This document shows, in pieces, positions 5,196 through 36,308 of a stretch of DNA of 62,315 nucleotides. The translations under genes were made by a program, and so were the position numbers. The DNA lies in the NCBI GenBank assembly GCA_017483065.1, contig JAFULX010000002.1, positions 1 to 62,315 of the forward strand, in the 5' to 3' direction. Position 1 is the stretch's first letter; every line of letters begins with the position of its first letter. Below the pieces are notes generated by a model. It saw only the letters and a program-made list of their open reading frames with translations, was not told the DNA's origin and did not search any database. Source of the DNA: Clostridia bacterium. GTDB taxonomy: Bacteria > Bacillota > Clostridia > UBA1381.

Positions 5196-5210
5196 GAAAG
5201 CGAGGGTATT

Positions 5211-5674: not shown

Positions 5675-5678
5675 CAAA

Positions 5679-10070: not shown

Positions 10071-10242
10071 TTATGATAAGTACCGAGAAATCACAGAAGC
10101 TGTGCAAAAAAACGATGGTTATTGTCCTTGTGCGATTGAGAAAAGCGAAGACACCAAATGTCCCTGTAGAGCTTTCATGGAGCAAGAAACGGCAGGGGAA
10201 TGCCATTGTGGGCGATTTATAAAAGATTATGAATATGTTTGA
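10048..10242 (+). CDS. Ferredoxin-thioredoxin-reductase catalytic-domain-like protein (64 aa)
   Basis: GYCPCAIEKSEDTKCPCRAFMEQETAGECHCGRF reproduces the CPC...CPC...CHC spacing of FTR catalytic subunits. Confidence 0.55.
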   Translation: MITRRNPDYDKYREITEAVQKNDGYCPCAIEKSEDTKCPCRAFMEQETAGECHCGRFIKDYEYV

Positions 10243-10323
10243 GAAGCTGTGGTTGTTGTTTGTTTTGCTCTGCGTTTGTGTGGGTGCGGAAGACGATGAT
10301 TATTGAAAGCGAGGTGAGTAAGG

Positions 10324-12029: not shown

Positions 12030-12392
12030 ATGCCCAACAAAAGACCACCCAATGCCGAGCAGACACAATTCCGAAGCGGTGCTGAAGCGGTGGAAAATGG
12101 GCAAAAAGGTGGAGTTGCATCAGGCGAAGCAAGGCGTAACAAAAAATTACTCCGTGAGTGTCTGGAAATCCTGCTTGAAAAGGAAATGACCGACAAAAGC
12201 GGTAAGACAATGTCAGGTGCTGAAGCTCTTGCAACAAAGCTGTTTGCAGAGGCGATGAAAGGCAATGTAAAAGCGTTTGAGGTATTGCGAGATACGGCAG
12301 GGCAAAAGCCTGTTGAAAAAATCGTTGTTTCGGAAATAGACAGCGATGTTATTGAAGAGGTAGAAAGAATGGTAAATGATGAAACCGATTGA
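12030..12392 (+). CDS. Putative terminase small subunit
   Basis: Position upstream of terminase large subunit; basic N-terminus and KGNVKAFEVLRDTAGQKP motif seen in small terminases. Confidence 0.45.
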   Translation: MPNKRPPNAEQTQFRSGAEAVENGQKGGVASGEARRNKKLLRECLEILLEKEMTDKSGKTMSGAEALATKLFAEAMKGNVKAFEVLRDTAGQKPVEKIVVSEIDSDVIEEVERMVNDETD

Positions 12393-12984
12393 ATTATGGC
12401 AAGGTGATTGTCTTGAATTGATGAAGAACATTCCCGATGGGTCGGTGGATTTGGTGCTGACTGACCCTCCGTATGGCACTATGAAAGGTGCGGCGCTTGA
12501 TGGGTGGAAAAATCAAACTACCGAGTTGGATAGGTCTGGACTGAAAGTAAAACAAATAAACGAGTTGCTTGGAACAAGCACTATGGCAAGCCACTATTTC
12601 CGTGCTGGGTGTCAGTTTGTTCTACCGACAAAAGAGAAATACGAAAAACTGCAAACGACTGGTTTTTGGCAAAGACCTTACAAAGAACTGAAAGAAAAAA
12701 CAATTCCTGTTTTCAATCTTTGGCAAGGTGGCAAATCAAAGTCAAATGTGCTTGAATACAAGAAAGACAATGACGGCTATCATCCAACACAGAAACCCGT
12801 TGCACTTTTGGAAGATTTGATACAGACCTATTCCAACGAGGGAAATACTGTCCTTGACTTCACAATGGGTAGCGGTAGCACGGGCGTGGCTTGCGTGAAT
12901 ACAAACCGCCACTTTATCGGCATTGAGCTTGATGAGGGTTATTTCAACATAGCCAAAAAGAGAATTGAGGAAGCTTGTCTGTGA
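12376..12984 (+). CDS. DNA methyltransferase (DPPY motif, probably N6-adenine)
   Basis: VDLVLTDPPYG, HPTQKPVALLEDLI, DFTMGSGSTGVAC. Confidence 0.8.
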   Translation: MMKPIELWQGDCLELMKNIPDGSVDLVLTDPPYGTMKGAALDGWKNQTTELDRSGLKVKQINELLGTSTMASHYFRAGCQFVLPTKEKYEKLQTTGFWQRPYKELKEKTIPVFNLWQGGKSKSNVLEYKKDNDGYHPTQKPVALLEDLIQTYSNEGNTVLDFTMGSGSTGVACVNTNRHFIGIELDEGYFNIAKKRIEEACL

Positions 12985-25096: not shown

Positions 25097-25462
25097 ATGA
25101 AATATTTCTTTAAAATCAACGATACGGAATTTTCAAATTGTTCCGCCTTATCGGTTGCAGATGTGTACAGAGGCGAAACAAAGAAACAAACGCTTTCAGG
25201 AACGCTTTTGTACGATAGGATTGGCAATGCAAAGCTACAGGCAACGGCAAAGCTGAATATGATTACAGAAGCAGAAATGCAAGCGTTAAGAGATGCGGTA
25301 AGCGATATGACGGCAACAGTCAGCTTTTATCGAGGCTCTGTTCTTGTTGAAAAAACAATGAGAATAGAGCCGTTTACCGAGCCTACGCCAATATATCTGG
25401 GCGGAAAATTGGACAATGGTATAATTTACGGCACGTTAAATATTAAGGCGGTGGAATTATGA
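25097..25462 (+). CDS. Tail component in the distal-tail-protein position
   Basis: 121 aa after tape measure; ATG 25097 with GAAAGG RBS (track ORF starts at 25070). Confidence 0.45.
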   Translation: MKYFFKINDTEFSNCSALSVADVYRGETKKQTLSGTLLYDRIGNAKLQATAKLNMITEAEMQALRDAVSDMTATVSFYRGSVLVEKTMRIEPFTEPTPIYLGGKLDNGIIYGTLNIKAVEL

Positions 25463-28209
25463 GAGCGATTTCAGAAAATCTGCTTAACAAAATACAATCA
25501 AATACAAGAGCTTATGACATAATGCTTACAGTATATCATAGATATATAGATGCAGACAAAAATATCAGCTTTGATACTTCTACCGATTACTCGTCAAATG
25601 CGGAACTGCTCGGTGTTTCAAGCTTACATGGTGCTACTACTGGATATTTACAGCTTGGCAAAACTTTTGTGAGCGAGATTGATTTCTCGCTTACAAAGAA
25701 TGCCGTTTGCCGTGTAGGTGACAAGGTTAAACTTTGGCTTGACTTTGGCGAAGGCGATACCATAACGCTTGCTACAGCTTATGTCGATACCGTTTCGCAC
25801 GACCAATGGCAGAGTAACTTTACCGCATATGATAAAATGATGCAGTTAAATAAAGCGTATATATCCGAGTTGACTTACCCTGCATCAGCATCAGCGGTAG
25901 TGGACGAGATTTGCGAGCAGACGGGACTTGAATTAGAGCCGTTTGTGTTCGAGTGCAATCCAACGCTGAAAGTTGCTCCCGTATCTCCTAACACAGATTA
26001 CAACGGCAATTCCGTCTATTATTCATACCGAGAGATACTCGGATATATCGCCCTTGCCAATGCTTCAAATGTGGTTATTGATGAAGAAACGGAAAAACTG
26101 AAATTCGTCAAATATACGGATAGTGGCTCTGTCTTTGATTATAACAAGACAATTCGCAGGACTATCAATAATGAAAATTATGTGATAAATGCTATTAAGG
26201 TAAGCGATACTGGATATAGCGAAGGAAACGCAAAAGGCGAATTTGAAGTGTTTTTCCCTCTGCAAATTACACAGCCAAAAGAATATATTTATTCTTATCT
26301 TACAACTTTCTTTGTTGGACTTTCCTATATCGGTATGACTGCACAAAAGCAAGGCTACGGCATATATCAGATAGGCGATTTAGTCGATTATGCCGATTTT
26401 GACGAACAAAATTATACTTTTGCTGTAATGGGTGTAAAGTATGATTTTAGCGGAGGCTATTTTACGGAACAGCTTTATTCCCTTGCTCCGTCAGAAATGG
26501 AAGCGGAATATTCAGGCGGCATCTATGTGGGACAAAACAACACGAATATTAAAAATCCCGTTATCATATCAGAAAAAAGCAAAAGCTATTTAAAATATGA
26601 TTATACTTCAGTCGGCTACATTAAAGGCGATGAAGCAAGTTATGGAAGCGAAGAAAATACCGTTATTAACAACGGGTATTTGTTGCTGAGAAGCTCGCAA
26701 GCAATAGACGGAGATTTTGTATATAAAAGAATAGATTTCCCCGTTGGATATAATCTCGAAACAAATGCGGCGGTAAGCGATAAAAGGTCAAAAGTAACTA
26801 ATGTAGCAATATATTGTCATCTAGCGGAAGTCGATAGCACAGGCGGCAGGGATATAGAAGTTTATGTTAATTTTGTCGATGAAGACGGAGTGCTAGTTGG
26901 ATATCGCTTCACATACTTTTACGTGGTGTCAGGAGCGGATTGGGGAATTGTTGCAAGATGGGAAAAGTTATATTCTCCCACAGAAGAAAAGCCTTATGGT
27001 TATGCAGATATAAGCTTTAATGCTGTATCTTATGTGGAAGGGGAATGGAAACAAGAATACACTACTCTTTATTGCAATGTCGAGATTCCGTTTGCTAATA
27101 TTAACGAGTATAATATGGCAGTGCAATTAACAAACGTGCCTCTTGAAGTCTACGATGTCACACAAAACGTGATGCAAATAGTAGAAGGTGACAAATATGC
27201 AGACCTCCCTGAAATTGGTACTGCTGATACTCTCTATGTGACTTATCAGCCACCTGCTGTATATAAGTATTCAACAGTTACACAAAGTTATTATTGTGTA
27301 GGCAGGAATTACAAAGAGATACAAAGAATAGTATCGACTACCAAGCCTGATGATAACGAGGTAGCGACATACAAAGTGCCTATAGTTTTTGATGTCCGCA
27401 CCAAAGCGGAATGGGAACTCGAAGCAAACACAGTTTTCCCGAAAGGATTTGTAATTTTCGAACAAGAGCCTGAAACAAGAGAGAAAACAAAAATAAAAAT
27501 TGCAAACGGCATTGACAAGTTAAGCGATTTGGCTTATAATGGTATTGATGAATCCTTGCTCGAAGGGAAAGCGGATAAAACAGAAGTAACTGCACTTCAG
27601 AGCGATGTGACGGAGCTGCAGAAGAGCAGAAGAAACTACATATACAATTCCGCATTTCTGTACGGCTCGGACGGATGGGTGCTTGATACAAACTGCGCTG
27701 TGGATAAAACCAGGCTGTATAACTGTCATCCTACAGTAAAGCTCAATCAGATGGGACTTTCTGCGGCGGCGTATAACGGCGTATCTTCTACGGCTCTGCC
27801 GATAAAGGATAAGTCGGAAATGAAGTCGGGAGAGCTTTGGAACTTCAGTTGTAAATATTATGCCGAGGATATAAGCACCATAGACCAGCCGATTCTCTTT
27901 CAGATTCAGGGCATAGCAGAAGGAGCTACGGCACTTTCGGTAATTGCACAGCGTTCTGTGGCGGCAGACGGTATAACCGCAGGAGAATGGCAGGAAATGA
28001 GCTTCAGTTTTACGCCTGCACAGAATTATTCAGCCTGTATGGTAAACTGCTTCCTGATTCAGAACGGTGTGCTGTGGTTTGCAGATTTCAAGCTTGAAAA
28101 GAACAATAAATCCACAGAATGGATTCCTGCTTATGAAGATGCAGGAATAATGGCAGAACGCATAGCAACGCTTGAAGCGGCACTTCTTTCATTGGGAGGT
28201 GAGGTATAA
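25459..28209 (+). CDS. Tail-associated / receptor-binding protein with C-terminal carbohydrate-binding-like module
   Basis: 916 aa after Dit-position gene; coiled segment KADKTEVTALQSDVTELQ then beta-rich domain ending WFADFKLEKNNKSTEWIPAYED. Confidence 0.65.
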   Translation: MRAISENLLNKIQSNTRAYDIMLTVYHRYIDADKNISFDTSTDYSSNAELLGVSSLHGATTGYLQLGKTFVSEIDFSLTKNAVCRVGDKVKLWLDFGEGDTITLATAYVDTVSHDQWQSNFTAYDKMMQLNKAYISELTYPASASAVVDEICEQTGLELEPFVFECNPTLKVAPVSPNTDYNGNSVYYSYREILGYIALANASNVVIDEETEKLKFVKYTDSGSVFDYNKTIRRTINNENYVINAIKVSDTGYSEGNAKGEFEVFFPLQITQPKEYIYSYLTTFFVGLSYIGMTAQKQGYGIYQIGDLVDYADFDEQNYTFAVMGVKYDFSGGYFTEQLYSLAPSEMEAEYSGGIYVGQNNTNIKNPVIISEKSKSYLKYDYTSVGYIKGDEASYGSEENTVINNGYLLLRSSQAIDGDFVYKRIDFPVGYNLETNAAVSDKRSKVTNVAIYCHLAEVDSTGGRDIEVYVNFVDEDGVLVGYRFTYFYVVSGADWGIVARWEKLYSPTEEKPYGYADISFNAVSYVEGEWKQEYTTLYCNVEIPFANINEYNMAVQLTNVPLEVYDVTQNVMQIVEGDKYADLPEIGTADTLYVTYQPPAVYKYSTVTQSYYCVGRNYKEIQRIVSTTKPDDNEVATYKVPIVFDVRTKAEWELEANTVFPKGFVIFEQEPETREKTKIKIANGIDKLSDLAYNGIDESLLEGKADKTEVTALQSDVTELQKSRRNYIYNSAFLYGSDGWVLDTNCAVDKTRLYNCHPTVKLNQMGLSAAAYNGVSSTALPIKDKSEMKSGELWNFSCKYYAEDISTIDQPILFQIQGIAEGATALSVIAQRSVAADGITAGEWQEMSFSFTPAQNYSACMVNCFLIQNGVLWFADFKLEKNNKSTEWIPAYEDAGIMAERIATLEAALLSLGGEV

Positions 28210-28774: not shown

Positions 28775-28995
28775 AAGAGTTAAAAAGAAAGCTTTCAAGC
28801 CGCAAGTTATGGCTCGCTATCGCAGGATTTGTCGCTGGACTTATCCTTGCATTTGGCGGCACGCAGGAAGCGGCAGACACAACAACTGGTTGCATTATGT
28901 CGGGAGCATCTGTTATAGCTTACATCCTTGCAGAAGGATTTGCAGACGGAAAGGCGGCAGAGCAGAAGAAAGAGGGCGGAAACGATGAAAGTTAA
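28771..28995 (+). CDS. Putative holin (two TM helices, charged C-terminus)
   Basis: 74 aa, LWLAIAGFVAGLILAFGG and GCIMSGASVIAYILAEGF, directly upstream of endolysin. Confidence 0.6.
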   Translation: MKELKRKLSSRKLWLAIAGFVAGLILAFGGTQEAADTTTGCIMSGASVIAYILAEGFADGKAAEQKKEGGNDES

Positions 28996-30055
28996 GGGTG
29001 TAGATTTATCGTATGTTCAGGAAGGCATTAATTACAACGCTCTCGTTGAGGATGATGTCAAATTCGCAATTATTCGTCTCGGATTTGCCGATAAGGAAGA
29101 TATTACAGCGGCAGGACATATCAAAGGTTGCCAAAATCACGGAATTGATTATGGTTACTACTGGTACAGCTATGCTATGAGCGTAGAAGAAGCAAAGAAA
29201 GAGGCAGAGGCTTGTATTTCAGCAATCAATAAATACAATCGCCCTAATTATCCGATTTTCTACGATTTTGAAGAAAAAAATCAAGCGGAAATGCTCGACA
29301 AGGCAACAAAAACAGAAATAGTTACTACTTTCTGTGATACAGTCATAGCCGCAGGTTATAAATGCGGAGTGTACGCAAGCGGCTCTTGGTTCGGTGTACA
29401 TCTCGACACGGAAAAGCTGAAAGGCTATGATATTTGGCTCGCTCATTGGACTTATAATCCCGAAATCCCTACAAGCTATGATGTAGGTCAGACTATGTGG
29501 CAATGGGGATTAGATGTAATCGGTAGTATGGAAGTTGACGGAGATATCTGTTATGTTGATTATCCTGCAATTATGGAAAAGTTCTACAAGGAACATCAGC
29601 CAAAGGAAGAGGAAAAGCCTGTTGAAGAAGAAGTAAAACCGCCTTTTGCCGATGGCGAAAAGGTAAAATTAAAGTATGGTTGCTCTTTTTCCGATGGTAC
29701 TTTGCCTTTCACATTTGTTTATTTGACTGCTTTCGACATAATCCAGTATAGCAAGGATTATTCTGAGGCTCTTATTGGATTAAACGGCAATTACACAGGA
29801 TGGGTTTACACAAAAGACCTTTATCCTGCAAATTCGCAACCTGAAGTTGACGAAAACAAGCTGAACAAGGGCGACAAGGTAAAAGTTAAAGAGGGAGCAA
29901 CAGACTACAGCGGAAAGCCTCTTGCATCTTTCGTATATCAGCAGGTATATGAAGTAATGCAGGTGGGTACTATCGCAGACCCCGATTATATCGTAATCGG
30001 GCAGGGCGGAGAGGTGACAGCGGCTCTCCGTGATGATGATTTGTATAAGGTGTGA
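28985..30055 (+). CDS. Endolysin: GH25 muramidase with two C-terminal SH3b-like repeats
   Basis: KGVDLSYVQEGINYNAL...FAIIRLGF...GYYWYSYA...IFYDFEE (GH25 pattern); duplicated GxKVK(L/V)K...FVY motif at the C-terminus. Confidence 0.85.
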   Translation: MKVKGVDLSYVQEGINYNALVEDDVKFAIIRLGFADKEDITAAGHIKGCQNHGIDYGYYWYSYAMSVEEAKKEAEACISAINKYNRPNYPIFYDFEEKNQAEMLDKATKTEIVTTFCDTVIAAGYKCGVYASGSWFGVHLDTEKLKGYDIWLAHWTYNPEIPTSYDVGQTMWQWGLDVIGSMEVDGDICYVDYPAIMEKFYKEHQPKEEEKPVEEEVKPPFADGEKVKLKYGCSFSDGTLPFTFVYLTAFDIIQYSKDYSEALIGLNGNYTGWVYTKDLYPANSQPEVDENKLNKGDKVKVKEGATDYSGKPLASFVYQQVYEVMQVGTIADPDYIVIGQGGEVTAALRDDDLYKV

Positions 30056-30062
30056 GGTTAAA

Positions 30063-30383
30063 ATGGAAGAAAAGAATAATATAGCAAGCGTTCCCTATAT
30101 CGTCTATGAAAGTGCGATGGCGAGGAACGAAAGAACATTTAAAAAAATGTGGGGTGCTTTAATTCTGCTGATATTACTGCTTGTCGGCTCTAATGTAGGT
30201 TGGCTGATTTATGAAAGCCAGTTTGAAACAGTAGAAGTCTATCAAGAGGTAGAACAAGAAGCGGAAGACGGCACAAATGACTTTATAGGTGGTGACTACT
30301 ATGGCGAAGCAGAAGATAAAGACAGTAATCAAGAAGCGAGTGAAGAAGAACGCGCCGACACAGAAGACTTGTCCGACCTGTAA
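30063..30383 (+). CDS. Membrane protein with acidic C-terminal tail (lysis-cassette associated)
   Basis: GAGGT RBS, ATG 30063; single TM WGALILLILLLVGSNVGWLIY. Confidence 0.55.
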   Translation: MEEKNNIASVPYIVYESAMARNERTFKKMWGALILLILLLVGSNVGWLIYESQFETVEVYQEVEQEAEDGTNDFIGGDYYGEAEDKDSNQEASEEERADTEDLSDL

Positions 30384-30418
30384 GGGACTTGGAAAAATCA
30401 AGAAATGAGGCTTGCGAA

Positions 30419-30709
30419 ATGCTTATTTATGTAGCTCACGCTTACGGCGGCAACGCCGAAAACCTTGAAAAAGCGAAGAAAATCATACACGATTTGCAAA
30501 CGAAAGACACGGAAAATTGCTACATTTCGCCGTTATCAGCCTTTTCTCACCTCGGCTATGGCGAGATAGGGTACGAGCAGGAAATGGATTTGTGCATAGA
30601 TTTGCTTTCGGTTTGCGATATGCTTTTGGTTGCTTCGGAAATATCAAGAGGTGTACAAGCGGAGATAGATTTTGCCAAGCTCGTCAAAATGGAGATAAAG
30701 TATATATGA
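30419..30709 (+). CDS. DUF1937/DUF4406-like (nucleoside 2-deoxyribosyltransferase-like fold) protein
   Basis: MLIYVAHAYGG...YISPLSAFSH...CDMLLVASEISRGVQAEIDFA fits that pattern. Confidence 0.45.
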   Translation: MLIYVAHAYGGNAENLEKAKKIIHDLQTKDTENCYISPLSAFSHLGYGEIGYEQEMDLCIDLLSVCDMLLVASEISRGVQAEIDFAKLVKMEIKYI

Positions 30710-30921
30710 AAAATATCGAAAACTATGATTTGCCTCGGGGTGAATGGGAAAAGTTGATTGACGATTGGATTTTTTCTTCCGTTTATCGTCAAATGTTGAA
30801 AGACCGTCTGTTAGACGGCGTTTGCTTCGAGGCTTTAGCAAAAAAACACGGCTATTCCGTACAGCATACAAAATCTATCATCTACAAGAGTATGGAAAAG
30901 CTAATAAAACATATAAAATAA
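30706..30921 (+). CDS. Sigma-70 region-4-like helix-turn-helix regulator (71 aa)
   Basis: WIFSSVYRQMLKDRLLDGVCFEALAKKHGYSVQHTKSIIYKSMEKL resembles sigma region 4 / late-regulator HTH proteins. Confidence 0.5.
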   Translation: MKNIENYDLPRGEWEKLIDDWIFSSVYRQMLKDRLLDGVCFEALAKKHGYSVQHTKSIIYKSMEKLIKHIK

Positions 30922-30941: not shown

Positions 30942-30975
30942 AAGACCTTTGCTTGCTTGCGGAGGTCTTATTTTT
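30942..30975 (+). terminator. Intrinsic terminator
   Basis: aagacct-(14-nt loop)-aggtctt followed by aTTTTT. Confidence 0.55.
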
Positions 30976-31029
30976 ATGCTATTATTAGGGCAGAAAGAGA
31001 GGTGTGTTGCCTTGATAGAAGAAATTCTG

Positions 31030-31179
31030 ATGTCGAATGAACGGCTTTTGTCTTTGCCTTACTGGACTACCTACAGGGCAATACAAATCCTTGTTGAAGA
31101 GAAGTTGATAGACGAAAAGAAAGCAAAGTTATATGTGGATATGCAAAAACGAAAATCCCCAAAACAATCGTGTAGGTGA
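31030..31179 (+). CDS. Small hypothetical protein (start uncertain)
   Basis: Part of track ORF 30949..31179, whose first 27 codons overlap the terminator; weak RBS. Confidence 0.3.
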   Translation: MSNERLLSLPYWTTYRAIQILVEEKLIDEKKAKLYVDMQKRKSPKQSCR

Positions 31180-31513
31180 TTGCGTAATCCGGGCGATAAG
31201 TACCGCCTTAAATCAGGATTGGCAGACGACTTTTATTGAATTATCTGTACAAGGCTTGATGATGTGCGATTTAACTTCAAGTAATGCCGTTTGGGGCGAA
31301 TACCTGAAAAGAAAAGGCTACAAGAAAAAGCCTATAGTCAATGATTGCAACTGTTATACTATAGAGGATTTCTGCAAGGATTATCCAAGCGGAACATATA
31401 TCCTTGGCACTGGTACACACGCTGTTGCGGTTATCGATGGCAATTACTACGATTTTTGGCAGAGTGGGAATGAACTCCCGATATATTACTTTGAGAAAGA
31501 AAGCGAGTGTTAA
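31133..31513 (+). CDS. Hypothetical protein with conserved Cys/His pair (possible papain-like fold)
   Basis: VGDCVIRAIS...GTHAVAVIDGNYYDFWQSG; family I recall as common in Firmicutes phages/plasmids, function unknown. Confidence 0.5.
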   Translation: MWICKNENPQNNRVGDCVIRAISTALNQDWQTTFIELSVQGLMMCDLTSSNAVWGEYLKRKGYKKKPIVNDCNCYTIEDFCKDYPSGTYILGTGTHAVAVIDGNYYDFWQSGNELPIYYFEKESEC

Positions 31514-31515
31514 AA

Positions 31516-31983
31516 ATGGCTTATCCTAACTATTATCAGAATTACTATGGAGCTGTACCCGATATGCTCAATCAACAAAAGATGCCGTATCAGATGCAAC
31601 AAGCACAAATGCCTATGCAAATGCCGTCAGACCCATTACTTTGGGTCTTGGGCGAGGTCGAAGCGATGTCCTACCCCGTAGCACCAAATAACACGGTTGT
31701 GCTGTGGGATAAAAACGAGCCTGTCATCTATGTAAAATCGGCAAATATGCAGGGCGTTCCGTCAATTAAAGTGCTTGATTTCACGGAAAGACAGCCAAAT
31801 GCTCCAGAACGCACGCAAACGCCCCAAAAACACGAATGCAAATGCGGTGACAAGTTTATACTAAAAGAGGATTTCAACGCCTTACAGAACGAATTAGCGA
31901 CATTACGAAGCGAGTTTGAAAACTTTACCGCAAAACAGACTACAAAAAGCACAAAATCGAAGGGAGAAACAGTAGATGGCTAA
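31516..31983 (+). CDS. Hypothetical protein: Tyr/Gln/Met/Pro-rich N-terminus, globular core, C-terminal coiled coil
   Basis: MAYPNYYQNYYGAVPDMLNQQKMPYQMQQAQMPMQMP...; ATG 31516 right after previous stop. Confidence 0.55.
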   Translation: MAYPNYYQNYYGAVPDMLNQQKMPYQMQQAQMPMQMPSDPLLWVLGEVEAMSYPVAPNNTVVLWDKNEPVIYVKSANMQGVPSIKVLDFTERQPNAPERTQTPQKHECKCGDKFILKEDFNALQNELATLRSEFENFTAKQTTKSTKSKGETVDG

Positions 31984-32164
31984 TCCTTTATATCAAAATC
32001 AGCCAAATCAAAGAGAAATGATACTTGCACAGGCTATGGAATTAAAAAACAGCCTGAAAGTAAATCCGAGAGAAGAAGTCAACAGGCTTTTAGCTTCGGG
32101 ACAGATGTCACAGGATGATTTCAACCGCTTTGTGCAGGTAGCAAGAGCGATTCTCGGCAATTAA
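31976..32164 (+). CDS. Hypothetical protein (62 aa)
   Basis: Start overlaps previous gene end; helical. Confidence 0.5.
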   Translation: MANPLYQNQPNQREMILAQAMELKNSLKVNPREEVNRLLASGQMSQDDFNRFVQVARAILGN

Positions 32165-32237
32165 CGGCTATAATTGAGAGCGTACGGCTCAATTCGGCAA
32201 TATAAAAAAGAAAAAACAAAAGAAAGGGGACAAATTT

Positions 32238-33038
32238 ATGTCTTTAACTACAAGCGAAATGACACCTGCCGATATTGCGGCGGTATGTGGCAACAGCAGA
32301 AACAGCAATGACGGAATGTTTGGAAACGATTGGGCGTGGATTATCATTCTTCTGCTCTTCGGTTACAACGGCAGAGGCTTTGGCGGTTTCGGTGGTGGCT
32401 TTGGCGGTCAGGGTGCTTCTTGCGGTTGCTCACCTTGTGCAACACAGGCAGATGTAAGAGCCGCAGTAGACCAGCAGACACTTATCAGCAAGCTTGACCA
32501 ACAGACTTACGGTCTTGCAGACAGCACTTATGCACTCAATAACACTATTACAGCAGGTTTCCACGGCGTAGATAACGCTATCTGCAACCTCGGTTATAAT
32601 GTACAGAGTGGATTTAATTCTCTCGGTCATCAGATTTCCGATTGTTGCTGTCAGACACAAAGAGCAATCGATAGAGTTGCTTACGAAAATCAGGCTAACA
32701 CCTGTGCTTTACAGAACACTATCAACGGCACTACAAGAGATATTATCGACAACGCAAATGCTAACAGCCGTGCAATTCTCGACTTCCTTACACAGGACAA
32801 GATTGCAACTCTTACTGCTGAAAATCAGGCTCTTAAGTTCCAAGCATCACAGACTGCACAGAACGCTTATATCGGTGCAACAGTTGATAGTGCCGTTGCC
32901 GAACTCATAAGACGCACAGGCAACGATTGCCCTCAGCCGAGTTACATCGTTCAGCCTCCTCAGCCCGTTACTTTCCCCACAAATTGCTGTGGCACGGTAA
33001 ACTACGCTTCTAACGGTTGCGGTTGCGGCGGCTTCTAA
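32238..33038 (+). CDS. Gly/Cys-rich single-pass membrane protein, unknown function
   Basis: AAAGGGGA RBS; TM WAWIIILLLFGY followed by GRGFGGFGGGFGGQGASCGCSPC; 14 Cys in CxC/CC/CCC clusters; ends NCCGTVNYASNGCGCGGF. Confidence 0.65.
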   Translation: MSLTTSEMTPADIAAVCGNSRNSNDGMFGNDWAWIIILLLFGYNGRGFGGFGGGFGGQGASCGCSPCATQADVRAAVDQQTLISKLDQQTYGLADSTYALNNTITAGFHGVDNAICNLGYNVQSGFNSLGHQISDCCCQTQRAIDRVAYENQANTCALQNTINGTTRDIIDNANANSRAILDFLTQDKIATLTAENQALKFQASQTAQNAYIGATVDSAVAELIRRTGNDCPQPSYIVQPPQPVTFPTNCCGTVNYASNGCGCGGF

Positions 33039-33113
33039 AATCGAATAATCAAACTACTTCCGCTTCAATGCGGTTGTTCGGCAAAAAAGCTGATTATGTT
33101 TAAGAAAAATCGT

Positions 33114-33143
33114 GGCGAGGTAGTTTCTATCTCGCCATTTTTT
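33114..33143 (+). terminator. Intrinsic terminator inside the cargo module
   Basis: ggcgag-(11-nt loop)-ctcgcc then aTTTTTT. Confidence 0.6.
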
Positions 33144-33157
33144 CGGAAAGGAAAATT

Positions 33158-33595
33158 ATGGCAGAATATTCATACATCCCTACCCAGACGGTAGCGGAAA
33201 ACGAAAACATTTTATTCCTTGATGGTGACAGATGTTGCAAGAAGGGATATATCACACACAGAAGCGGCTCGGGTGTGTTTCGTCTGAAAGGTGCTTCAAA
33301 TGGATGCAAAGCAATCTACAGAGTAACATTTAACGCTAATGTAACAGTAGCTCCTGCCGATGAAGGCGGTGTGCTTGCTCCTGTATCGGTAGCACTTCAG
33401 GAAGACGGCGAAACACTCGGAAATGCCGTTGCAACAGTTACTCCTGCGGCAATAGGCGATTTATTTAACGTTTCTCTGTCTACATTTATAGTTATTCCTT
33501 GCGGATGCTGTGTAACGGTTTCCGTGGAGAACATAAGCGATGGTACAGCGATTGAGGTAGTCAACGCTAATATCATCTTTGACAGAGTAGCGTAA
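33158..33595 (+). CDS. Beta-rich protein resembling a BclA C-terminal (TNF/C1q-like) domain
   Basis: 145 aa, alternating beta pattern, 6 Cys, C-terminus ...VVNANIIFDRVA recalls the ...SASIIIEKVA end of Bacillus BclA (from memory). Confidence 0.4.
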   Translation: MAEYSYIPTQTVAENENILFLDGDRCCKKGYITHRSGSGVFRLKGASNGCKAIYRVTFNANVTVAPADEGGVLAPVSVALQEDGETLGNAVATVTPAAIGDLFNVSLSTFIVIPCGCCVTVSVENISDGTAIEVVNANIIFDRVA

Positions 33596-33614
33596 GGAAG
33601 GAGAGAAAAACAGT

Positions 33615-34139
33615 ATGCATAAAATTAAAGAAATGCTTATGAAAGAGCTTTACGAATACGAGGAAAAGGCAAAAAAGATTTCGGGCGGTAAGATGTCCGC
33701 AGGTGACCTTGAGACTCTGCATAAGCTCACAGATACAGTAAAAAATATCGACAAGATAGAAGCCCTTGAAGATGGCGAAGGCTACTCCGAAGATGGAGCT
33801 TATATGGGCGAAGGTCGCATCTACGGCACTTCTTACGACGGCGGCTCGTCTTATGCGAGAATGGGCAGAGGCAGAGGCAGAAATGCAAAGAGAGATAGCA
33901 GAGGCAGATATTCAAGCGAAGGTGGTAGCTATGACTACGGCAGAAGCTATGACGATGATATGTCCTATGCCCGTGGTGGCAGAGGTGGCAACCGTGGCTC
34001 TTCTTATCGTTCTTCGTACAGCTACGATGGAGCAAAAGAAGATATGATTGAAAAGCTTGAAGATATGCTCGGAATGACTGAAAGCGAACAGGAACGCAGA
34101 GCAATTCAGCAATGCATTCAAAAGCTTGAACAAGCTTAA
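33615..34139 (+). CDS. Protein with helical ends and a central Gly/Ser/Tyr/Arg/Asp-rich low-complexity region
   Basis: GAAGGAGAG RBS; GYSEDGAYMGEGRIYGTSYDGGSSYARMGRGRGRNAKRDSRGRYSSEGGSYDYGRSYDDDMSYARGGRGGNRGSSYRSSYSYDG. Confidence 0.6.
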   Translation: MHKIKEMLMKELYEYEEKAKKISGGKMSAGDLETLHKLTDTVKNIDKIEALEDGEGYSEDGAYMGEGRIYGTSYDGGSSYARMGRGRGRNAKRDSRGRYSSEGGSYDYGRSYDDDMSYARGGRGGNRGSSYRSSYSYDGAKEDMIEKLEDMLGMTESEQERRAIQQCIQKLEQA

Positions 34140-34148
34140 AAATTAAAG

Positions 34149-34478
34149 GTGGTGGCAGGATTGATAAGCGAAAGAGAATTGAACGAAGCTATAAGAGAGT
34201 ATGAGCAACAGCCGATGAATGCTCAAAGAGTAGCAAAACTCGTTGACTTATATTCTTTGCGTGAACATCTCTATAGTGGTAGTCCTGCCACTGTATCTGT
34301 AAGGACACAGACCGAAGAACAAAAAACGAAGACGGAGGGCGGTACGGAGTTCTTACAGATGGCAGACGGAAAAGATATAAACAAGATACTTATTATAATA
34401 GACAACCTTATGCAGACAATAAAAGTTCTGCATCCGAGGATGTATGACAGAGTTCTTGACTTGATTTCCGACCTTTGA
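34149..34478 (+). CDS. Hypothetical helical protein (start uncertain, GTG/TTG)
   Basis: 109-aa ORF, last gene before terminator 34489. Confidence 0.5.
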   Translation: MVAGLISERELNEAIREYEQQPMNAQRVAKLVDLYSLREHLYSGSPATVSVRTQTEEQKTKTEGGTEFLQMADGKDINKILIIIDNLMQTIKVLHPRMYDRVLDLISDL

Positions 34479-34488
34479 TTTTATTTTT

Positions 34489-34520
34489 AAGACGGGGTTT
34501 TTCTCCGTCTTTTTCTTTTG
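34489..34520 (+). terminator. Intrinsic terminator
   Basis: aagacgg-ggtttttct-ccgtctt then TTTCTTTT. Confidence 0.7.
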
Positions 34521-34565: not shown

Positions 34566-34594
34566 TTGACAAATGCACAGAAATATGTTATTAT
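34566..34594 (+). promoter_or_regulatory. Sigma-A-type promoter P7 (extended -10), paralogous to P1/P2
   Basis: AAAAAGTGTTGACAAAT, 17 nt, TGt-TATTAT; ttttttaaaaaa tracts upstream; leader ~75% identical to that of P2. Confidence 0.75.
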
Positions 34595-34649: not shown

Positions 34650-34973
34650 ATGAAAGTTTACAAATTATATGTTTTTGGTGAATATGTAAAAACCTATGAA
34701 ATTGAGGAGAGCGACACAGCAAATAATTTTGACGGTTACGCAAAAGCGGAGAAAAAAGAAAATCCCTATGACGAAAGCTGTTATTTATATTTTAAGTTGT
34801 GGGAAAAGAACGGCAAAAAAAGAATATACATCAATACGTATAAGCGAAGAACTCTTGGTTACATTGATGTAACAAGTGGTGAAATTATAATTGAGGACAG
34901 ACAGGGTAGTTTTCAGAACGAAATCGAAACAGCGTTAAGTAACTTTTTAAGTAAATATGAAATCGCAGAGTGA
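34650..34973 (+). CDS. Hypothetical protein
   Basis: 107-aa ORF, first gene after P7. Confidence 0.6.
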   Translation: MKVYKLYVFGEYVKTYEIEESDTANNFDGYAKAEKKENPYDESCYLYFKLWEKNGKKRIYINTYKRRTLGYIDVTSGEIIIEDRQGSFQNEIETALSNFLSKYEIAE

Positions 34974-35049
34974 TTCGGCGAGCAATCGCCGAAGTAATGC
35001 GGGTAGACAAACGGTCACAACCCCGATAGTCAAGAAAGGCGGTGAGCAG

Positions 35050-35217
35050 ATGAATACCAAAAAGCCAGAAAAGGACAGAAAAACAAAGTTTTTGACGATA
35101 GCAGTCACGGATGATGACAAGAAAAGAATTGAAGCGAAGGCAAGATTTTGCAACTTATCGTTATCAGCTTATGCAAGAGTTAAGCTGTTAGCGGATGAAA
35201 GAGAGGAAAAGATATGA
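35050..35217 (+). CDS. RHH (MobC-like) DNA-binding protein (55 aa)
   Basis: TKFLTIAVTDDDKKRIEAKARFCNLSLSAYARVKLL parallels the RHH at 1960..2118; track ORF starts upstream at 34957. Confidence 0.5.
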   Translation: MNTKKPEKDRKTKFLTIAVTDDDKKRIEAKARFCNLSLSAYARVKLLADEREEKI

Positions 35218-36308
35218 AAGGGTATAAAGGATTTGAAAAAGGTTTAGTTTGCAGAGGCAAACAGTACACGGAAAACACAGTATTTGAAGAAAAAACCGCA
35301 GAGATTTGCAAAAGCGGTATGCACTTTTGCGAAAATCCGTTTGATGTTCTAGACCATTATGGTTTTGTGAATGACAGTGCGGAGTTAAACGAATTTGCAG
35401 AGGTTGAGGCTCTTGACAAAGTAAAGACCTATGATAGCAAGAAATTTGCCACAAAAAAGCTGAAAATCGGAGCAAAGATAGGAATTTCAGGACTTGTTAA
35501 GGCATTTGTTGATTTTACAATGAAAAAAGTCGACTTTGAAAATTCAGTGGCTACCAATACTGGCGACTATTCAGTGGCTACCAATACTGGCGACTATTCA
35601 GTGGCTACCAATACTGGCTACAAGTCAGCGGCTACCAATACTGGCTACAAGTCAGCGGCTACCAATACTGGCGACTATTCAGTGGCTACCAATACTGGCG
35701 ACTATTCAGCGGCTACCAATACTGGCGACTATTCAGTGGCTACGAATACTGGCAACTATTCAGTGGCTACCAATACTGGCAGCTGGTCAGCGGCTACCAA
35801 TACTGGCTACAAGTCAGCGGCTACCAATACTGGCGACTATTCAGTGGCTACCAATACTGGCAGCTGGTCAGCGGCTACCAATACTGGCTACAAGTCAGCG
35901 GCTACCAATACTGGCTACAAGTCAGCGGCTACCAATACTGGCAGCTGGTCAGCGGCTACCAATACTGGCAGCTGGTCAGCGGCTACCAATACTGGCTACA
36001 AGTCAGCGGCTACCAATACTGGCTACAAGTCAGCGGCTACCAATACTGGCGACTATTCAGCGGCTACCAATACTGGCAGCTGGTCAGCGGCTACGGTTGA
36101 GGGCAAAGAAAGTTTTGCAATTGCAACAGGTATAGAAAGCAAAGTAAAGGGAAAATTAGGTTGCTATATAGCAGTTGCAGAATGGGAAGAAACAGAAGAC
36201 GGCTATAAGCTTGTTGGTTTCAAATCGCACAAAGTAGACGGCAAAACAATTAAGCCTGATACGTTCTATAGACTTAAAAACGGAAAATTTGAGAAAGTGG
36301 AGGACTGA
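35214..36308 (+). CDS. Nonapeptide-repeat protein: conserved N-domain, 20 x S-[AV]-A-T-N-T-G-x-x, conserved C-domain
   Basis: 364-aa ORF; N-domain MKGYKGFEKGLVCRGKQYTEN...GMHFCENPFDVLDHY; C-domain GKLGCYIAVAEWEE...VDGKTIKPDTFYRLKNGKFEKVED. Confidence 0.85.
   Translation: MKGYKGFEKGLVCRGKQYTENTVFEEKTAEICKSGMHFCENPFDVLDHYGFVNDSAELNEFAEVEALDKVKTYDSKKFATKKLKIGAKIGISGLVKAFVDFTMKKVDFENSVATNTGDYSVATNTGDYSVATNTGYKSAATNTGYKSAATNTGDYSVATNTGDYSAATNTGDYSVATNTGNYSVATNTGSWSAATNTGYKSAATNTGDYSVATNTGSWSAATNTGYKSAATNTGYKSAATNTGSWSAATNTGSWSAATNTGYKSAATNTGYKSAATNTGDYSAATNTGSWSAATVEGKESFAIATGIESKVKGKLGCYIAVAEWEETEDGYKLVGFKSHKVDGKTIKPDTFYRLKNGKFEKVED
35544..36083 (+). repeat. 20 tandem in-frame 27-nt repeats
   Basis: tca-g[tc]g-gct-acc-aat-act-ggc-NNN-NNN units; variable dipeptide is DY, YK, SW or NY; a degenerate 21st unit follows. 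Confidence 0.95.

Follow-up and report, generated by a model that had tools for sequence, protein, structure and literature searches.

Behind the lysis genes of a gut phage of Clostridia lies a block of about eight genes that is genuine, conserved, self-contained and uncharacterised, and that is carried by thousands of gut phage genomes. The window analysed here, a stretch of DNA of 62,315 nucleotides, holds a circular siphophage genome of ~36 kb repeated 1.73 times, with no integrase among the ORFs scanned. The conservation and synteny of the cassette, its insulation as a transcription unit, the fold of one product (p7) and the architecture of another (p6) form the established part of the analysis. 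The original prediction had listed about nine co-oriented ORFs, whose coordinates stand but whose number is eight, all on the + strand: seven larger ORFs spanning 31133-34478, and the small ORF 31030-31179, which is counted because it has weak, consistently placed relatives at no fewer than 14 other loci. The features of the cassette and its borders are as follows.

30706..30921, + strand: p0, 71-aa HTH protein resembling sigma region 4, with one weak PHROG match
30942..30969, + strand: upstream intrinsic-terminator-like hairpin, 11-bp stem then T-run; -16.6 kcal/mol, z = -4.5
30957..30985, + strand: candidate promoter, TTGCGG, 17 nt, extended -10 TGcTATTAT; overlaps the terminator
31030..31179, + strand: p1, small conserved 49-aa ORF with weak tblastn matches of the type ELPFLVVFRTIQIL
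31133..31513, + strand: p3, 126-aa putative Cys-His-Asp enzyme; phrog_3754, E = 1.2e-26
31516..31983, + strand: p4, 155 aa; phrog_21718, E = 9.4e-26
31976..32164, + strand: p5, 62-aa Gln-rich protein, helical by inspection; phrog_22984, E = 1e-9
32238..33038, + strand: p6, 266 aa, the cassette hallmark; phrog_16490, E = 3.7e-70
33112..33138, + strand: internal hairpin and T-run, 12-bp stem; -18.3 kcal/mol, z = -5.2
33158..33595, + strand: p7, 145-aa stand-alone TNF/C1q-like jelly-roll protein (AF2 model, Foldseek)
33615..34139, + strand: p8, 174 aa, helical ends around an ~85-aa Arg/Gly/Ser/Tyr/Asp low-complexity core
34149..34478, + strand: p9, 109 aa, last cassette gene, helical by inspection, syntenic, with conserved motifs
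34489..34511, + strand: downstream terminator closing the cassette, 9-bp stem then T-run; -12.8 kcal/mol, z = -5.9
34566-34594, + strand: strong predicted promoter of the next (early) region, TTGACA-17-TATTAT with an upstream TG

None of the cassette ORFs gave a Pfam, NCBIfam or PADLOC match within the cut-offs or a sequence-level match to a solved structure, and none of the proteins matched a known defence system or, at the sequence level, a coat or exosporium family. The PHROG families matched are all of unknown function, in line with the earlier remark that none of these ORFs could be matched to a standard phage function; neither the databases nor the searched literature contained a description of a phage system of this kind. 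The odd compositions first remarked on in p4, p6 and p8 were reproduced when residue percentages were computed.

The p6 family comprises at least 8000 clusters at 90% identity (the protein-collection gene call starts at Met8, giving 259 aa). The protein consists in order of an acidic N-tail, a Trp-flanked hydrophobic anchor (residues 32-43), a Gly/Phe-rich linker, a single helix of ~147 residues (81-227) in which a CCC motif (136-138) is invariant, and a tail rich in Pro and Cys which terminates in a C-G-C motif. It has 14 Cys (5.3% versus 2.2% in the other ORFs of the phage), 10.9% Gly and a GFGGFGGGFGG tract. The AF2 model, of low confidence (pLDDT 56), places a single helix across 81-227, and the hydrophobic periodicity is 3.6-3.65 residues with a power of 100.8, where 500 shuffles reached 76 at most; units of ~19 aa of the form GFxGVDNAICNLGYNVQS vary in number between homologues. 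The N-terminal flank is acidic (mean 3.9 D+E versus 0.9 K+R). A hydrophobic segment is indeed present, as the description of p6 as a single-pass membrane protein had it, but it is short and borderline, with a core of just 12-14 residues and a Kyte-Doolittle 19-residue maximum of 1.21 compared with 2.0-2.3 for the neighbouring holin-like proteins, so that insertion of p6 into a membrane is uncertain. The proposed analogy to Cys-rich crust proteins failed, and a CotY/ExsY-type identity was rejected, since the architecture is that of a hydrophobic anchor and one long helix. By inspection, no cassette protein other than p6 has a signal-peptide-like N-terminus, the highest hydrophobicity outside p6 mapping to beta strands within the p7 model. 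Small proteins with a hydrophobic N-terminus are encoded inside the cassette of the related locus L064 and just upstream of the window cassette.

For p7 the AF2 model (pLDDT 94.6, pTM 0.87) predicts with high confidence a fold of the type seen in ExsFA/BxpB and the C-terminal domain of BclA, in keeping with the BclA-like character originally ascribed to it. The best solved matches found by Foldseek are ExsFA (7r1m), BxpB (8d02) and ExsF (9h3d), at TM 0.69-0.74, with F-BclA (9h38) at 0.62-0.69 and BclA (1wck) at 0.61-0.65. The resemblance to these exosporium proteins is one of fold type, p7 having no sequence-level match and sharing 10-16% identity with the five structures; it carries an invariant G-C-C motif (116-118) and an HRxGSG motif. 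Its family numbers at least 2901 clusters at 90% identity and 539 at 50%. Among the best 150 relatives listed, nearly all stand alone and measure 130-160 aa; the others are fragments or, in a few cases, N-terminally extended forms, and none of these 150 is collagen-like. In a viral structure library the neighbours of p7 include C-terminal domains from the tail fibres of phages and from collagen-like fibres of giant viruses, together with a protein named 'fibritin neck whiskers'. Since viral fibres, too, often bear TNF/C1q knobs, the fold alone does not indicate spores.

The N-terminus of p4 is Tyr/Gln/Pro/Met-rich (Q 9.0%, P 8.4% and M 5.8% of the protein, concentrated there) and is followed by a conserved central domain (W43-V44, E47, A50, V55-A56-P57, K74, P82) and a C-terminus that is likely helical. 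Counterparts of p5, Gln/Met/Asn-rich and of the same size, occupy the same position in Butyrivibrio phage Ceridwen, in Clostridium perfringens phage CPD1, in L064 and in Vescimonas. p8 (G 14.4%, S 10.3%, Y 8.6%, R 8.6%, D 8.0%) belongs to a family of 5092 clusters at 90% identity, not one of which bears a Pfam domain or a name, and has conserved motifs of the RDSMGRYS type. Its low complexity holds, but the tandem repeats of CotG, to which it had been likened, are absent (a single 6-nt unit present three times was the only repeat), and a CotG-type identity was rejected on this ground. Synteny of p9 extends to Ceridwen, Dulem virus 33 and further loci, and a 131-aa protein of CPD1 seems by eye to join a p8-like N-terminus to a p9-like C-terminus.

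In p3, residues C17, H96 and D107 are invariant across 40 diverse relatives, from which we infer a papain- or transglutaminase-like fold; Pfam and PDB sequence searches gave no match, and among its relatives those in Tsamsa-like Bacillus phages bear the annotation 'putative peptidase'. This family also occurs apart from the rest of the cassette, for example alone in the early regions of other phages, so p3 may not belong to the assembly proposed below. The relatives of p1 are weak + strand tblastn matches lying at most 330 nt upstream of p3 at 14 or more loci. As for p0, the call of a sigma-region-4-like gene is backed by a single weak PHROG match (sigma-factor family phrog_1740, E = 0.0068). 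It is 55% identical to the same-position gene of Ceridwen, and of the 80 genome loci compared, BLAST detects it beside the cassette at 32. A small HTH gene lies directly upstream of the cassette in both the window and L064, the latter being a different gene with no significant similarity to p0. Encoded just upstream of the terminator/promoter junction, p0 is a candidate cassette regulator.

Synteny was assessed in 160 loci retrieved through p6 alone, the denominators being loci with sufficient flank. p7 is present in 96/138, p4 and p3 each in 93/133 and p8 in 64/138, with all five genes together in 63 loci. The order is kept in about 70% of the 160 loci and departs in merely three. The co-occurrence in other genomes that the original prediction had made a test of the gene set is thus found, and the genes appear to be one functional unit. 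The full cassette is present in Ceridwen, a phage whose growth has been observed as lytic only and whose host genus, Butyrivibrio, is described as non-spore-forming, and divergent p6-centred versions with Arg/Gly/Tyr-rich proteins are carried by an element of Bacteroides thetaiotaomicron and by a crAss-like phage; this range of hosts leaves the proposed link to spores unsupported. In these two, as in Clostridia phages, the genes follow lysis genes, other insertion sites being the prophage end by host genes, a position ahead of the integrase, and the gap between a MuF-like head gene and the scaffold/capsid genes (at least 39 loci). In one large lineage p3 begins where the MuF-like minor head gene ends, at its stop codon. 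In L064, which carries the cassette within its head cluster, the MuF-like gene is coupled only to p3; p4-p8 are served by a terminator/promoter of their own, and the capsid genes are under a separate promoter. In CPD1 the genes around the cassette are annotated as DNA-binding and recombination proteins, and in some Clostridia prophages the cassette sits at a cargo position beside host genes. Contigs bearing the cassette are labelled sipho-, myo- and podovirus.

Three terminators had been predicted to bracket and divide the module, and the hairpins with T-runs at 30942, 33112 and 34489, placed as predicted, outrank every other terminator-like site in 27-38 kb; for each of them 0/200 shuffles fold as well. 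The first would insulate the cassette from the lysis region, and an equivalent hairpin and T-run precedes the cassette at 35 of 85 distinct related loci versus 1 of 53 random control stretches. Embedded in it is a candidate promoter, whose extended -10 element (30977-30985) shares the form TGnTATTAT with the phage consensus promoters at 1214, 4928, 6734, 18885, 19004 and 34586 and which resembles the ordinary sigma-A-type promoters of the phage; relatives present TTGnnn within the hairpin loop and TGTTATnAT after the T-run. The internal hairpin, ending ~20 nt ahead of the p7 start codon, is probably an attenuator or RNA-stability element, and 33 of 85 distinct p6-p7 spacers, including those of cassettes inserted in head-gene clusters, have a hairpin and T-run of differing sequence at the same place. 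A terminator-like hairpin follows p8/p9 within 300 nt at 36 of 53 distinct loci (1 of 53 controls). Judged from these signals, the cassette is a genuine insulated, terminator-bracketed transcription unit; the flanking hairpins, the embedded promoter elements and the adjacent small HTH gene support its autonomy.

Our best guess, tentatively held, is that these genes specify a hydrophobically anchored stalk and TNF-trimer complex made in the infected or lysogenic cell. The main rival, which we consider rather unlikely, is an accessory virion fibre or capsid decoration, in which p6 would be a coiled-coil shaft with its hydrophobic N-terminus fixed in the particle, p7 a trimeric distal knob binding a gut glycan or cell-surface ligand, and the other proteins assembly factors. 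Among the standard designs of viral fibres is a coiled-coil shaft that bears a TNF/jelly-roll knob; the neighbours of p7 in the viral structure library, the varying repeat count of the p6 shaft, the many insertions between head genes, the carriage by a phage seen only as lytic and by contigs of all three virus labels, and the p6-like gene of the crAss-like phage cr4_1, which adjoins virion genes and is annotated 'outer capsid protein/viral fiber', all point the same way. However, even within the L064 head cluster the cassette keeps terminators and a promoter of its own that insulate it; it also comes with its own HTH gene, it sits at cargo positions in prophages and among DNA-binding and recombination genes in CPD1, its knob is a separate polypeptide, and it would be unusual for a tailed-phage virion to contain several low-complexity proteins or a Trp-flanked segment of strong hydrophobicity.

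It is distinctly less probable that an intracellular compartment, phase-separated or gel-like and tethered by p6, arises from the Gly/Phe-, Arg/Gly/Ser/Tyr- and Gln/Asn/Tyr-rich proteins and serves to organise replication or assembly or to shield components of the phage. Conserved low-complexity regions of condensate-driving kinds occur in four of the seven proteins, this character is kept in the p4-/p5-like proteins of CPD1 and, at the Bacteroides and crAss-like loci, in the Arg/Gly/Tyr-rich proteins, and the cassette proteins lack signal peptides; but the argument is one from composition, nucleic-acid-binding or enzymatic domains were not found in the cassette, and the TNF-like trimer and the Cys clusters are left unexplained. 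Still more improbable is a role for p6 and its partners as capsid cargo that is ejected together with the DNA; on infection the hydrophobic Gly-rich N-terminus would insert into the target membrane. MuF-family proteins often have packaged cargo encoded at the position that p3 takes in one lineage, and a hydrophobic segment, Gly-rich linker and long helix are compatible with a membrane-inserting ejection protein, yet L064 couples only p3 to the MuF-like gene, and neither the post-lysis position in most lineages nor a TNF-like partner is expected of ejection proteins. Least probable of all is the original reading of spore-coat or exosporium-like components remodelling the host spore surface, for which the exosporium matches of p7, the Cys-rich and Tyr/Ser/Arg-rich compositions reminiscent of coat proteins, the lack of signal peptides as in coat proteins made in the mother cell and the cargo position in Clostridia prophages speak, but which, already weakened by host range (lytic Ceridwen on Butyrivibrio, the Bacteroides and crAss-like versions), has against it the lack of an integrase among the ORFs scanned, the lack of any sequence match to coat or exosporium families, the architectures of p6 and p8 and the sigma-A-like form of the candidate promoter.

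The anchored stalk and trimer complex, to which the earlier suggestion of a self-assembling structure in infected cells comes close, would be one multi-protein assembly and not a spore-coat module. p6 would form an oligomeric, probably trimeric, alpha-helical stalk ~20 nm long, held at its N-terminus by the short Trp-flanked segment. The membrane concerned would most likely be the cytoplasmic one, the acidic N-tail facing outwards and the stalk projecting into the cytoplasm. The CCC motif and C-terminal Cys clusters of p6 may link chains or bind metal. The TNF-like p7 trimer would dock onto p6 as a knob or adaptor, the low-complexity p4, p5, p8 and p9 would form or organise material around this scaffold, and p3 may process or cross-link components or act on a host target. 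Expression would be set by the terminator-embedded promoter, possibly via the adjacent small HTH protein, and by the attenuator-like p6-p7 hairpin. Exclusion or lysis systems do not usually include low-complexity proteins, and a gene order that persists from one host phylum to another is more typically seen in a structural assembly, for instance a part of the virion; the 39 or more loci inside head-gene clusters, the low confidence of the p6 model and the lack of a match to known defence systems also count against this reading. A link to the envelope and lysis is suggested because the cassette follows lysis genes and small proteins with hydrophobic N-termini are encoded in or near it. The assembly may thus act at the envelope, for example in excluding other phages or in lysis or egress, and the genes would represent an autonomous accessory ('moron-like') cassette that moves between the operon boundaries of gut phage genomes.

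The sequence of the 62,315-base window starts over after 35,961 bases, so that it covers a circular phage genome of about 36 kb 1.73 times; positions from about 35962 on duplicate 1-26354 and the circular genome measures 35,961 bp. PHROG scans gave a siphovirus-type gene map with everything on the + strand, and neither an integrase nor a repressor was found among the scanned ORFs of this phage. The lysis genes precede the cassette considered here (genes p1 and p3-p9), and a strong promoter at 34566-34594, which opens the next region, follows it. The original prediction described this block as a terminator-bracketed, phage-borne module whose protein compositions recall spore coats and exosporia. 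Its ORFs were found where that prediction had placed them, their odd compositions agree with the description, and no sites of the region look more like terminators than the three hairpins, each with a T-run, at 30942, 33112 and 34489. The observation is real and lies much above chance.

Features of the phage genome and the cassette (window coordinates; phage genes from PHROG scans)
Early/replication genes, +, Erf-like annealing protein, SSB, DNA methyltransferases, DnaD-like loader, ParB-like and Mom-like proteins
13176, +, terminase
15594, +, portal
17168, +, MuF-like head protein
19707, +, major capsid protein
23230, +, tape measure
25459-28209, +, tail protein, 916 aa
28771, +, holin-like ORF
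28985-30055, +, endolysin
30706-30921, +, p0, HTH gene upstream of the cassette
30957-30985, +, candidate promoter (TTGCGG, 17 nt, TGcTATTAT), extended -10 of the same form as in six phage consensus promoters
31030-31179, +, p1
31133-31513, +, p3, 126 aa
31516-31983, +, p4, 155 aa
31976-32164, +, p5, 62 aa
32238-33038, +, p6, 266 aa, long-helix Cys protein
33158-33595, +, p7, 145 aa, predicted TNF/C1q-like protein
33615-34139, +, p8, 174 aa, low-complexity protein
34149-34478, +, p9, 109 aa

The sigma-like character proposed for the HTH gene p0 (30706-30921) is supported by one weak match (E = 0.0068), and against the PADLOC models its product gave a weak, unrelated methyltransferase-model match (E = 0.018). 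Just 5' of p0, the genes at 30030-30383 and 30389-30709 (+) travel with the cassette in ~21/80 genome loci; one of the pair encodes a protein of 117 aa that has an acidic tail and a single, strongly hydrophobic segment, while the product of the other resembles nucleoside 2-deoxyribosyltransferase (phrog_355). Just 3' of both the cassette and the 34566 promoter, a complete Type-P5 twister ribozyme (RF02684) at 34964-35026 (+) sits where the ORFs 34650-34973 and 34957-35217 overlap (model positions 1-58 covered, 55.8 bits vs a gathering score of 37.6, E = 9e-10). It is followed by a 364-aa ORF (35214-36308, +) that contains ~20 tandem copies of a 27-nt (9-aa) unit, ATNTG(D/S/Y)(Y/W/K)S(A/V), with a Tandem Repeats Finder score of 780 and matches to phrog_4433 and phrog_27197, both families of unknown function. 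Elsewhere in the genome a Mom-like DNA-modification gene (11283-12029, +; phrog_1384, E = 1e-49) lies beside a ParB-like gene and two genes for DNA methyltransferases, suggesting that the phage DNA is heavily modified.

The p6 and p7 genes are adjacent in annotated phages, and Butyrivibrio phage Ceridwen, Dulem virus 33 and Dulem virus 35 have p3-p4-(p5)-p6-p7-p8-p9 in synteny. Through p6 alone 160 loci were retrieved (80 viral contigs and 80 species-representative genomes) and scored for the partner genes by BLAST, counts being restricted to p6 loci with sufficient flank, 138 for p7 and p8 and 133 for p3 and p4. In many of these loci the genes are retained together and in order, bearing out the predicted co-occurrence of the block: p7 was present in 96/138, p8 in 64/138, and p3 and p4 each in 93/133, while the five-gene set was complete in 63 loci and the gene order was broken in only three. 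Weak relatives of p1 occur at the matching position in at least 14 other loci. Where the genome records name a host, it belongs to the gut Clostridia (Lachnospiraceae, Agathobacter, Oscillospiraceae, Acutalibacteraceae, Faecousia, Ruminococcus, Christensenellaceae and others). The cassette is thus a fixed-order, self-contained gene block that is widespread in gut phages.

Divergent versions extend this distribution. In the Clostridium perfringens phage CPD1, proteins resembling p4, p5 and p6 accompany a different small Cys-rich beta protein and an apparent p8/p9-like fusion, and the set is interrupted by an endonuclease-like gene. A p6-centred gene set is also found 3' of the lysis genes in a 61.8-kb Bacteroides thetaiotaomicron element and in the crAss-like phage cr4_1; it consists of a small HTH or 'sigma-like' gene, a p6-like gene of full length in which the hydrophobic segment, Gly-rich linker and CCC motif are present, and genes for one small protein rich in beta structure and one rich in Arg, Gly and Tyr. 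The small beta-rich proteins encoded after the p6-like genes of the Bacteroides, crAss-like and CPD1 sets could not be linked to p7 by profile-profile comparison (probability 0.7%). The endonuclease-like genes of Ceridwen (9518-10312 of its locus) and CPD1 (5200-5823 of its locus) are probably homing-endonuclease-like and share a GRLT...W.C.C.CG...SCGC motif, with the insertion lying between p7 and p8 in Ceridwen and before the p6-like gene in CPD1. Read with the standard bacterial code, the annotated genes of cr4_1 show many in-frame stops, and a stop codon is therefore probably reassigned; in the same phage the gene of a collagen-like Gly-X-X protein (1668-2288 of its locus) separates those of the endolysin and the holin.

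The position of the cassette varies from phage to phage. On calls made from a limited set of BLAST landmarks, it lies with a MuF-like or portal gene on one side and the scaffold/capsid genes on the other in at least 39 loci, just 3' of the lysis genes in 19, just 5' of an integrase in 15 and in both of the latter settings in six. Two prophages have the cassette as their final block, with host genes next to it: at one locus the adjoining host genes are those of FeoB and methionyl-tRNA synthetase, and in Vescimonas fastidiosa MM35 p4-p9 stand at the prophage end next to the genes for lactate dehydrogenase, MiaB and MutL. The hairpins at 30942, 33112 and 34489 have z-scores of -4.5, -5.2 and -5.9 against shuffled sequence. 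Within 300 nt upstream of the cassette a strong hairpin with a T-run occurs in 35/85 distinct loci as against 1/53 random stretches, and within 300 nt downstream in 36/53 distinct loci, again against 1/53, signals by which the cassette appears insulated whatever its position. Many relatives carry a TTGnnn element inside the hairpin loop and TGTTATnAT after the T-run, and judged by these consensus matches the upstream junction is a putative promoter built into a terminator. A hairpin just before p7, here the one at 33112, recurs in 33/85 distinct spacers, with unrelated sequences; as there is no room for a promoter at this point, its probable effect is to reduce transcripts or make them more stable, and thereby to fix the proportion of p3-p6 to p7-p9.

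In the phage of the window a near-identical promoter family, TGTTGACAAAT...TGTTATnAT, occurs at 1214, 4928, 6734, 18885, 19004 and 34586 (+). Two of its copies stand directly 5' of the scaffold/capsid genes, at about 18.9-19.0 kb, so the phage appears to use host sigma-A-type promoters for its head genes too, and a promoter of this type cannot be taken as the mark of an early cassette. Nor need a location in the head cluster mean co-transcription with the head genes, as one such locus (L064) illustrates with a terminator and promoter of its own. Here p3 overlaps the stop codon of the MuF-like gene and is followed by a small protein with a hydrophobic N-terminus, a small HTH gene, the terminator/promoter junction and p4-p8, and the scaffold/capsid genes have a separate promoter after a tRNA-Tyr. 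The similarity of the L064 HTH gene to p0 is insignificant (E = 0.19). The tRNA-Tyr gene itself (12390-12457, +) directly follows the Tyr-rich cassette.

Phage morons, such as lambda bor/lom and HK97 gp15, are autonomous promoter-gene-terminator units in late regions, and the classical ones carry one or two genes. The cassette resembles them in its predicted promoter and terminators, in insertion at operon boundaries, in its variable position and in its occurrence at prophage ends beside host genes. However, it comprises seven or eight genes in fixed order, with a putative internal attenuator, across distant phage lineages.

For p7 an AF2 model built from an 83-sequence alignment is all-beta (pLDDT 94.6, pTM 0.87) and has the TNF/C1q-like jelly-roll fold of the BclA C-terminal domain and of ExsFA-BxpB. 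Foldseek returned ExsFA (7r1m), BxpB (8d02) and ExsF (9h3d) as the top solved matches (TM 0.69-0.74), followed by F-BclA (9h38) and BclA (1wck, 3twi) at TM 0.61-0.69, these exosporium matches all having probability 1.00, and then by the wider TNF/C1q family, so that the likeness to BclA guessed from the sequence has held. All of these structural alignments show 10-16% identity. No Pfam or NCBIfam model matched p7 even at E <= 1, a 24-sequence profile found nothing among PDB sequences, and the sole hint from the 83-sequence profile was 9h38_A (E = 0.5), the C-terminal domain of the spore-appendage tip protein F-BclA (PMC12357932). By its modelled fold p7 belongs to the TNF/C1q superfamily, closest to ExsFA/BxpB, and by sequence to no described family. 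Among the models of the viral structure library, stand-alone proteins of 130-145 aa from uncultured gut phages come closest (TM up to 0.86), and fibres of phages and collagen-like proteins of giant viruses have the fold as their C-terminal domain. The p7 family (phrog_20016, E = 1.4e-36) comprises 539 clusters at 50% identity by exhaustive search and at least 2901 at 90%. Among the best 150 of the 539 clusters nearly all members are stand-alone and 130-160 aa long; the others are fragments or, in a few cases, extended at the N-terminus, and none has a collagen-like Gly-X-X stalk N-terminal to the p7 domain. Three relatives (P0263, P0301 and P0320) join an N-terminal fragment resembling p3 or p4 to a p7 body and may be recombinants, deletions or assembly artefacts.

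The neighbouring p6 contains 14 Cys (5.3% vs a background of 2.2%) and 10.9% Gly. Its AF2 model, of low confidence (pLDDT 56), has a short helix (33-40), a disordered Gly-rich stretch, one helix spanning 81-227 and a disordered Pro/Cys tail. The hydrophobic periodicity of the ~147-residue helix, 3.6-3.65 residues, is stronger than in every one of 500 shuffles. The CCC motif (136-138) and the C-terminal C-G-C motif are invariant, distant relatives included, and the number of ~19-aa GFxGVDNAICNLGYNVQS units differs among homologues. The original description of p6 as a single-pass membrane protein stands in part: the hydrophobic segment is present but short (Kyte-Doolittle 19-residue maximum 1.21 vs 2.0-2.3 in the adjacent holin-like proteins), and a membrane-spanning role is no more than plausible. 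Its N-flank is acidic, with 3.9 D+E vs 0.9 K+R. We thus describe p6 as a long-helix protein, on the model, with invariant Cys clusters and a plausible anchor. The family (phrog_16490, E = 3.7e-70) numbers at least 8000 clusters at 90% identity; its profile found only coiled-coil noise among all PDB chains (E >= 0.025), and a DNA-level search of the phage collection gave short p6 matches only. Crust and basal-layer proteins of the CotY/CotZ/ExsY/CdeC type are compact, soluble and Cys-rich, with neither a membrane anchor nor a long coiled coil. The proposed membership of p6 in this group did not survive, as p6 matched no such family profile and has the hydrophobic segment, Gly-rich linker and long predicted helix.

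The position after the lysis genes also invites comparison with the i-spanin Rz, which has an N-terminal membrane anchor, a long coiled coil and conserved Cys and is encoded right after the holin/endolysin genes. Anchor, coiled coil, Cys that could link chains and gene position are matched by p6 as predicted; however, p6 is twice as long, has no lipoprotein partner, and most hosts have no outer membrane. The Bacteroides element with a p6-like gene separately encodes what by inspection is a spanin-like protein, its N-terminus of lipoprotein type and its C-terminus bearing a hydrophobic segment. A spanin role for p6 was rejected on both of these grounds, the single membrane of most hosts and the separate spanin-like gene.

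Like p6 and p7, the partners p3, p4, p5 and p8 fall in PHROG families of unknown function. In p3 (phrog_3754, E = 1.2e-26) the residues C17, H96 and D107 are invariant across 40 diverse sequences and follow the order seen in papain-/transglutaminase-like enzymes; because no profile or fold match was obtained, that p3 is such an enzyme is something we infer. A Pfam scan of 40 members gave nothing significant (best Peptidase_C23, E = 0.064, in 2/40), nor did sequence and profile searches against PDB sequences, and relatives in Bacillus phage genomes bear the depositors' label 'putative peptidase'. The p3 family is wider than the cassette, with solitary copies in Tsamsa-like Bacillus phages, Geobacillus phage GBK2 and Lak megaphages; in the Tsamsa-like phages the homologue lies among likely early genes, such as that of an Ocr-like inhibitor. 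The N-terminus of p4 (phrog_21718, E = 9.4e-26) is rich in Tyr, Gln, Pro and Met, and a member-by-member Pfam scan of its family gave no recurring family; p5 matches phrog_22984 (E = 1e-9). The composition of p8 (phrog_28802, E = 0.001; 5092 clusters at 90% identity) is 14.4% G, 10.3% S, 8.6% Y, 8.6% R and 8.0% D, with conserved motifs such as RDSMGRYS, not repeats, in its low-complexity region. It had been likened to CotG, whose tandem Lys/Ser/Arg/Tyr-rich repeats are absent from it: Tandem Repeats Finder reports just one 6-nt unit repeated three times in 33615-34139, and the comparison was rejected. Four partner proteins have conserved low-complexity regions, and on inspection none of the partners of p6 has a signal-peptide-like N-terminus. 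Sequence and profile searches of p4 and p8 against all PDB chains found nothing significant.

As the original prediction anticipated, Pfam, NCBIfam and PADLOC profile searches of every cassette ORF reached no model, with no PADLOC match to the cassette proteins at E <= 1. In the p6, p7 and p8 families every source name is 'hypothetical protein', with no Pfam domain and no solved relative. Literature searches (PHROG identifiers, phage-borne BclA/exosporium genes, phage sporulation genes, C1q-like gut-phage proteins) likewise turned up no description of the cassette, in agreement with the earlier statement that no such phage system had been described; the literature on virion proteomics of C. 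perfringens phages held nothing bearing on its genes, and the Ceridwen paper does not mention mass spectrometry. What stands of the earlier proposal is a conserved, self-contained assembly module with one exosporium-type fold, seen in the fixed gene order, the predicted insulation and the modelled fold of p7.

We tentatively favour, at well below even chances, an assembly that forms in the infected or lysogenic cell, on the cytoplasmic side of its membrane, and acts at the envelope, for instance in phage exclusion or in the control of lysis and egress. The cytoplasmic face is preferred because the N-flank of the p6 segment is acidic and the partners have no signal-peptide-like N-terminus. In such an assembly p6 would oligomerise into a stalk of ~20 nm, onto which p7 trimers would dock, and the Cys clusters of p6 would cross-link chains or bind metal. 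The low-complexity partners would organise material around this p6/p7 scaffold, and p3 might process or cross-link cassette components or act on a host target.

The main rival, an accessory virion fibre or capsid decoration, is less probable. Viral fibres such as reovirus sigma-1 and the Sf6/HK620 tail-needle knob combine a helical coiled-coil shaft with a jelly-roll or TNF-like knob, a design that p6 and p7 recall through the long predicted helix with its coiled-coil-like periodicity and the TNF-like, presumably trimeric domain. The fibre C-termini among the viral-library relatives of p7, the crAss annotation of the p6-like gene and the many cassette insertions within head clusters point the same way. 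Shaft and knob are, however, separate gene products here, and the Trp-flanked hydrophobic segment and invariant Cys clusters of p6, the apparent transcriptional autonomy of the cassette, its cargo position in prophages and its low-complexity partners all weigh against a part of the virion.

Among known systems, the exosporium anchoring pair ExsFA/BxpB and BclA/F-BclA of the Bacillus cereus group is also close. Like ExsFA/BxpB, p7 stands alone at ~150 aa, lacks a signal peptide and, on the model, has the same jelly-roll; it is encoded beside a fibrous partner, and Cys motifs are prominent, as in the spore appendages, where CC motifs link the subunits (PMC12357932). The pair differs in that p7 shows neither a sequence-profile match nor identity beyond that seen in the structural alignments and has no collagen stalk as in BclA, that the predicted stalk of p6 is alpha-helical with a hydrophobic anchor and not a collagen-like chain, and that the cassette is phage-borne, occurs also in phages of non-spore-forming hosts and has no exosporium basal-layer genes nearby. 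On a bolder and rather unlikely reading, gut phages of several host phyla might carry a portable kit for a cross-linked protein layer or fibre coat that resembles an exosporium and is the phage's own. A coiled-coil stalk with Cys clusters, a TNF trimer of ExsF/BclA type, low-complexity proteins that form a gel and a Cys-His-Asp enzyme for cross-linking or processing would make it up. If so, the kit would coat virions or the remains of infected cells, aid persistence or adherence in the gut and constitute a viral counterpart of the spore outer layer, independent of host sporulation.

We consider it unlikely that the products make up a condensate or scaffold, and highly unlikely that they are packaged or ejected proteins. 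Least probable of all is the original tie to spores, in which the cassette would supply coat- or exosporium-like components: it is contradicted by the complete cassette of Ceridwen, a phage seen only in lytic growth on a host of the genus Butyrivibrio, described as non-spore-forming (PMC6249431), by the p6-centred cassettes of Bacteroides-associated elements and by the failed crust-type and CotG-type comparisons. No CotH-type kinase, the partner of CotG-like coat proteins, was found among the scanned ORFs, which cover part of the genome's ORFs.

The cassette falls outside every family and system tested. It is among the commoner unexplained gene blocks in phages of gut Clostridia, with more distant versions in Bacteroides-associated phages, and its presence in cultured phages (Ceridwen and several C. 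perfringens phages) and in the cultured lysogen V. fastidiosa MM35 makes it a clean genetic handle. The putative promoter-inside-terminator junction and the conserved pre-p7 attenuator, read from the sequence, would be compact regulatory designs worth study on their own. Learning what the cassette builds would annotate thousands of phage genes at once, and might bring to light a novel type of structure built by phages, whether at the cell envelope or on the virion.
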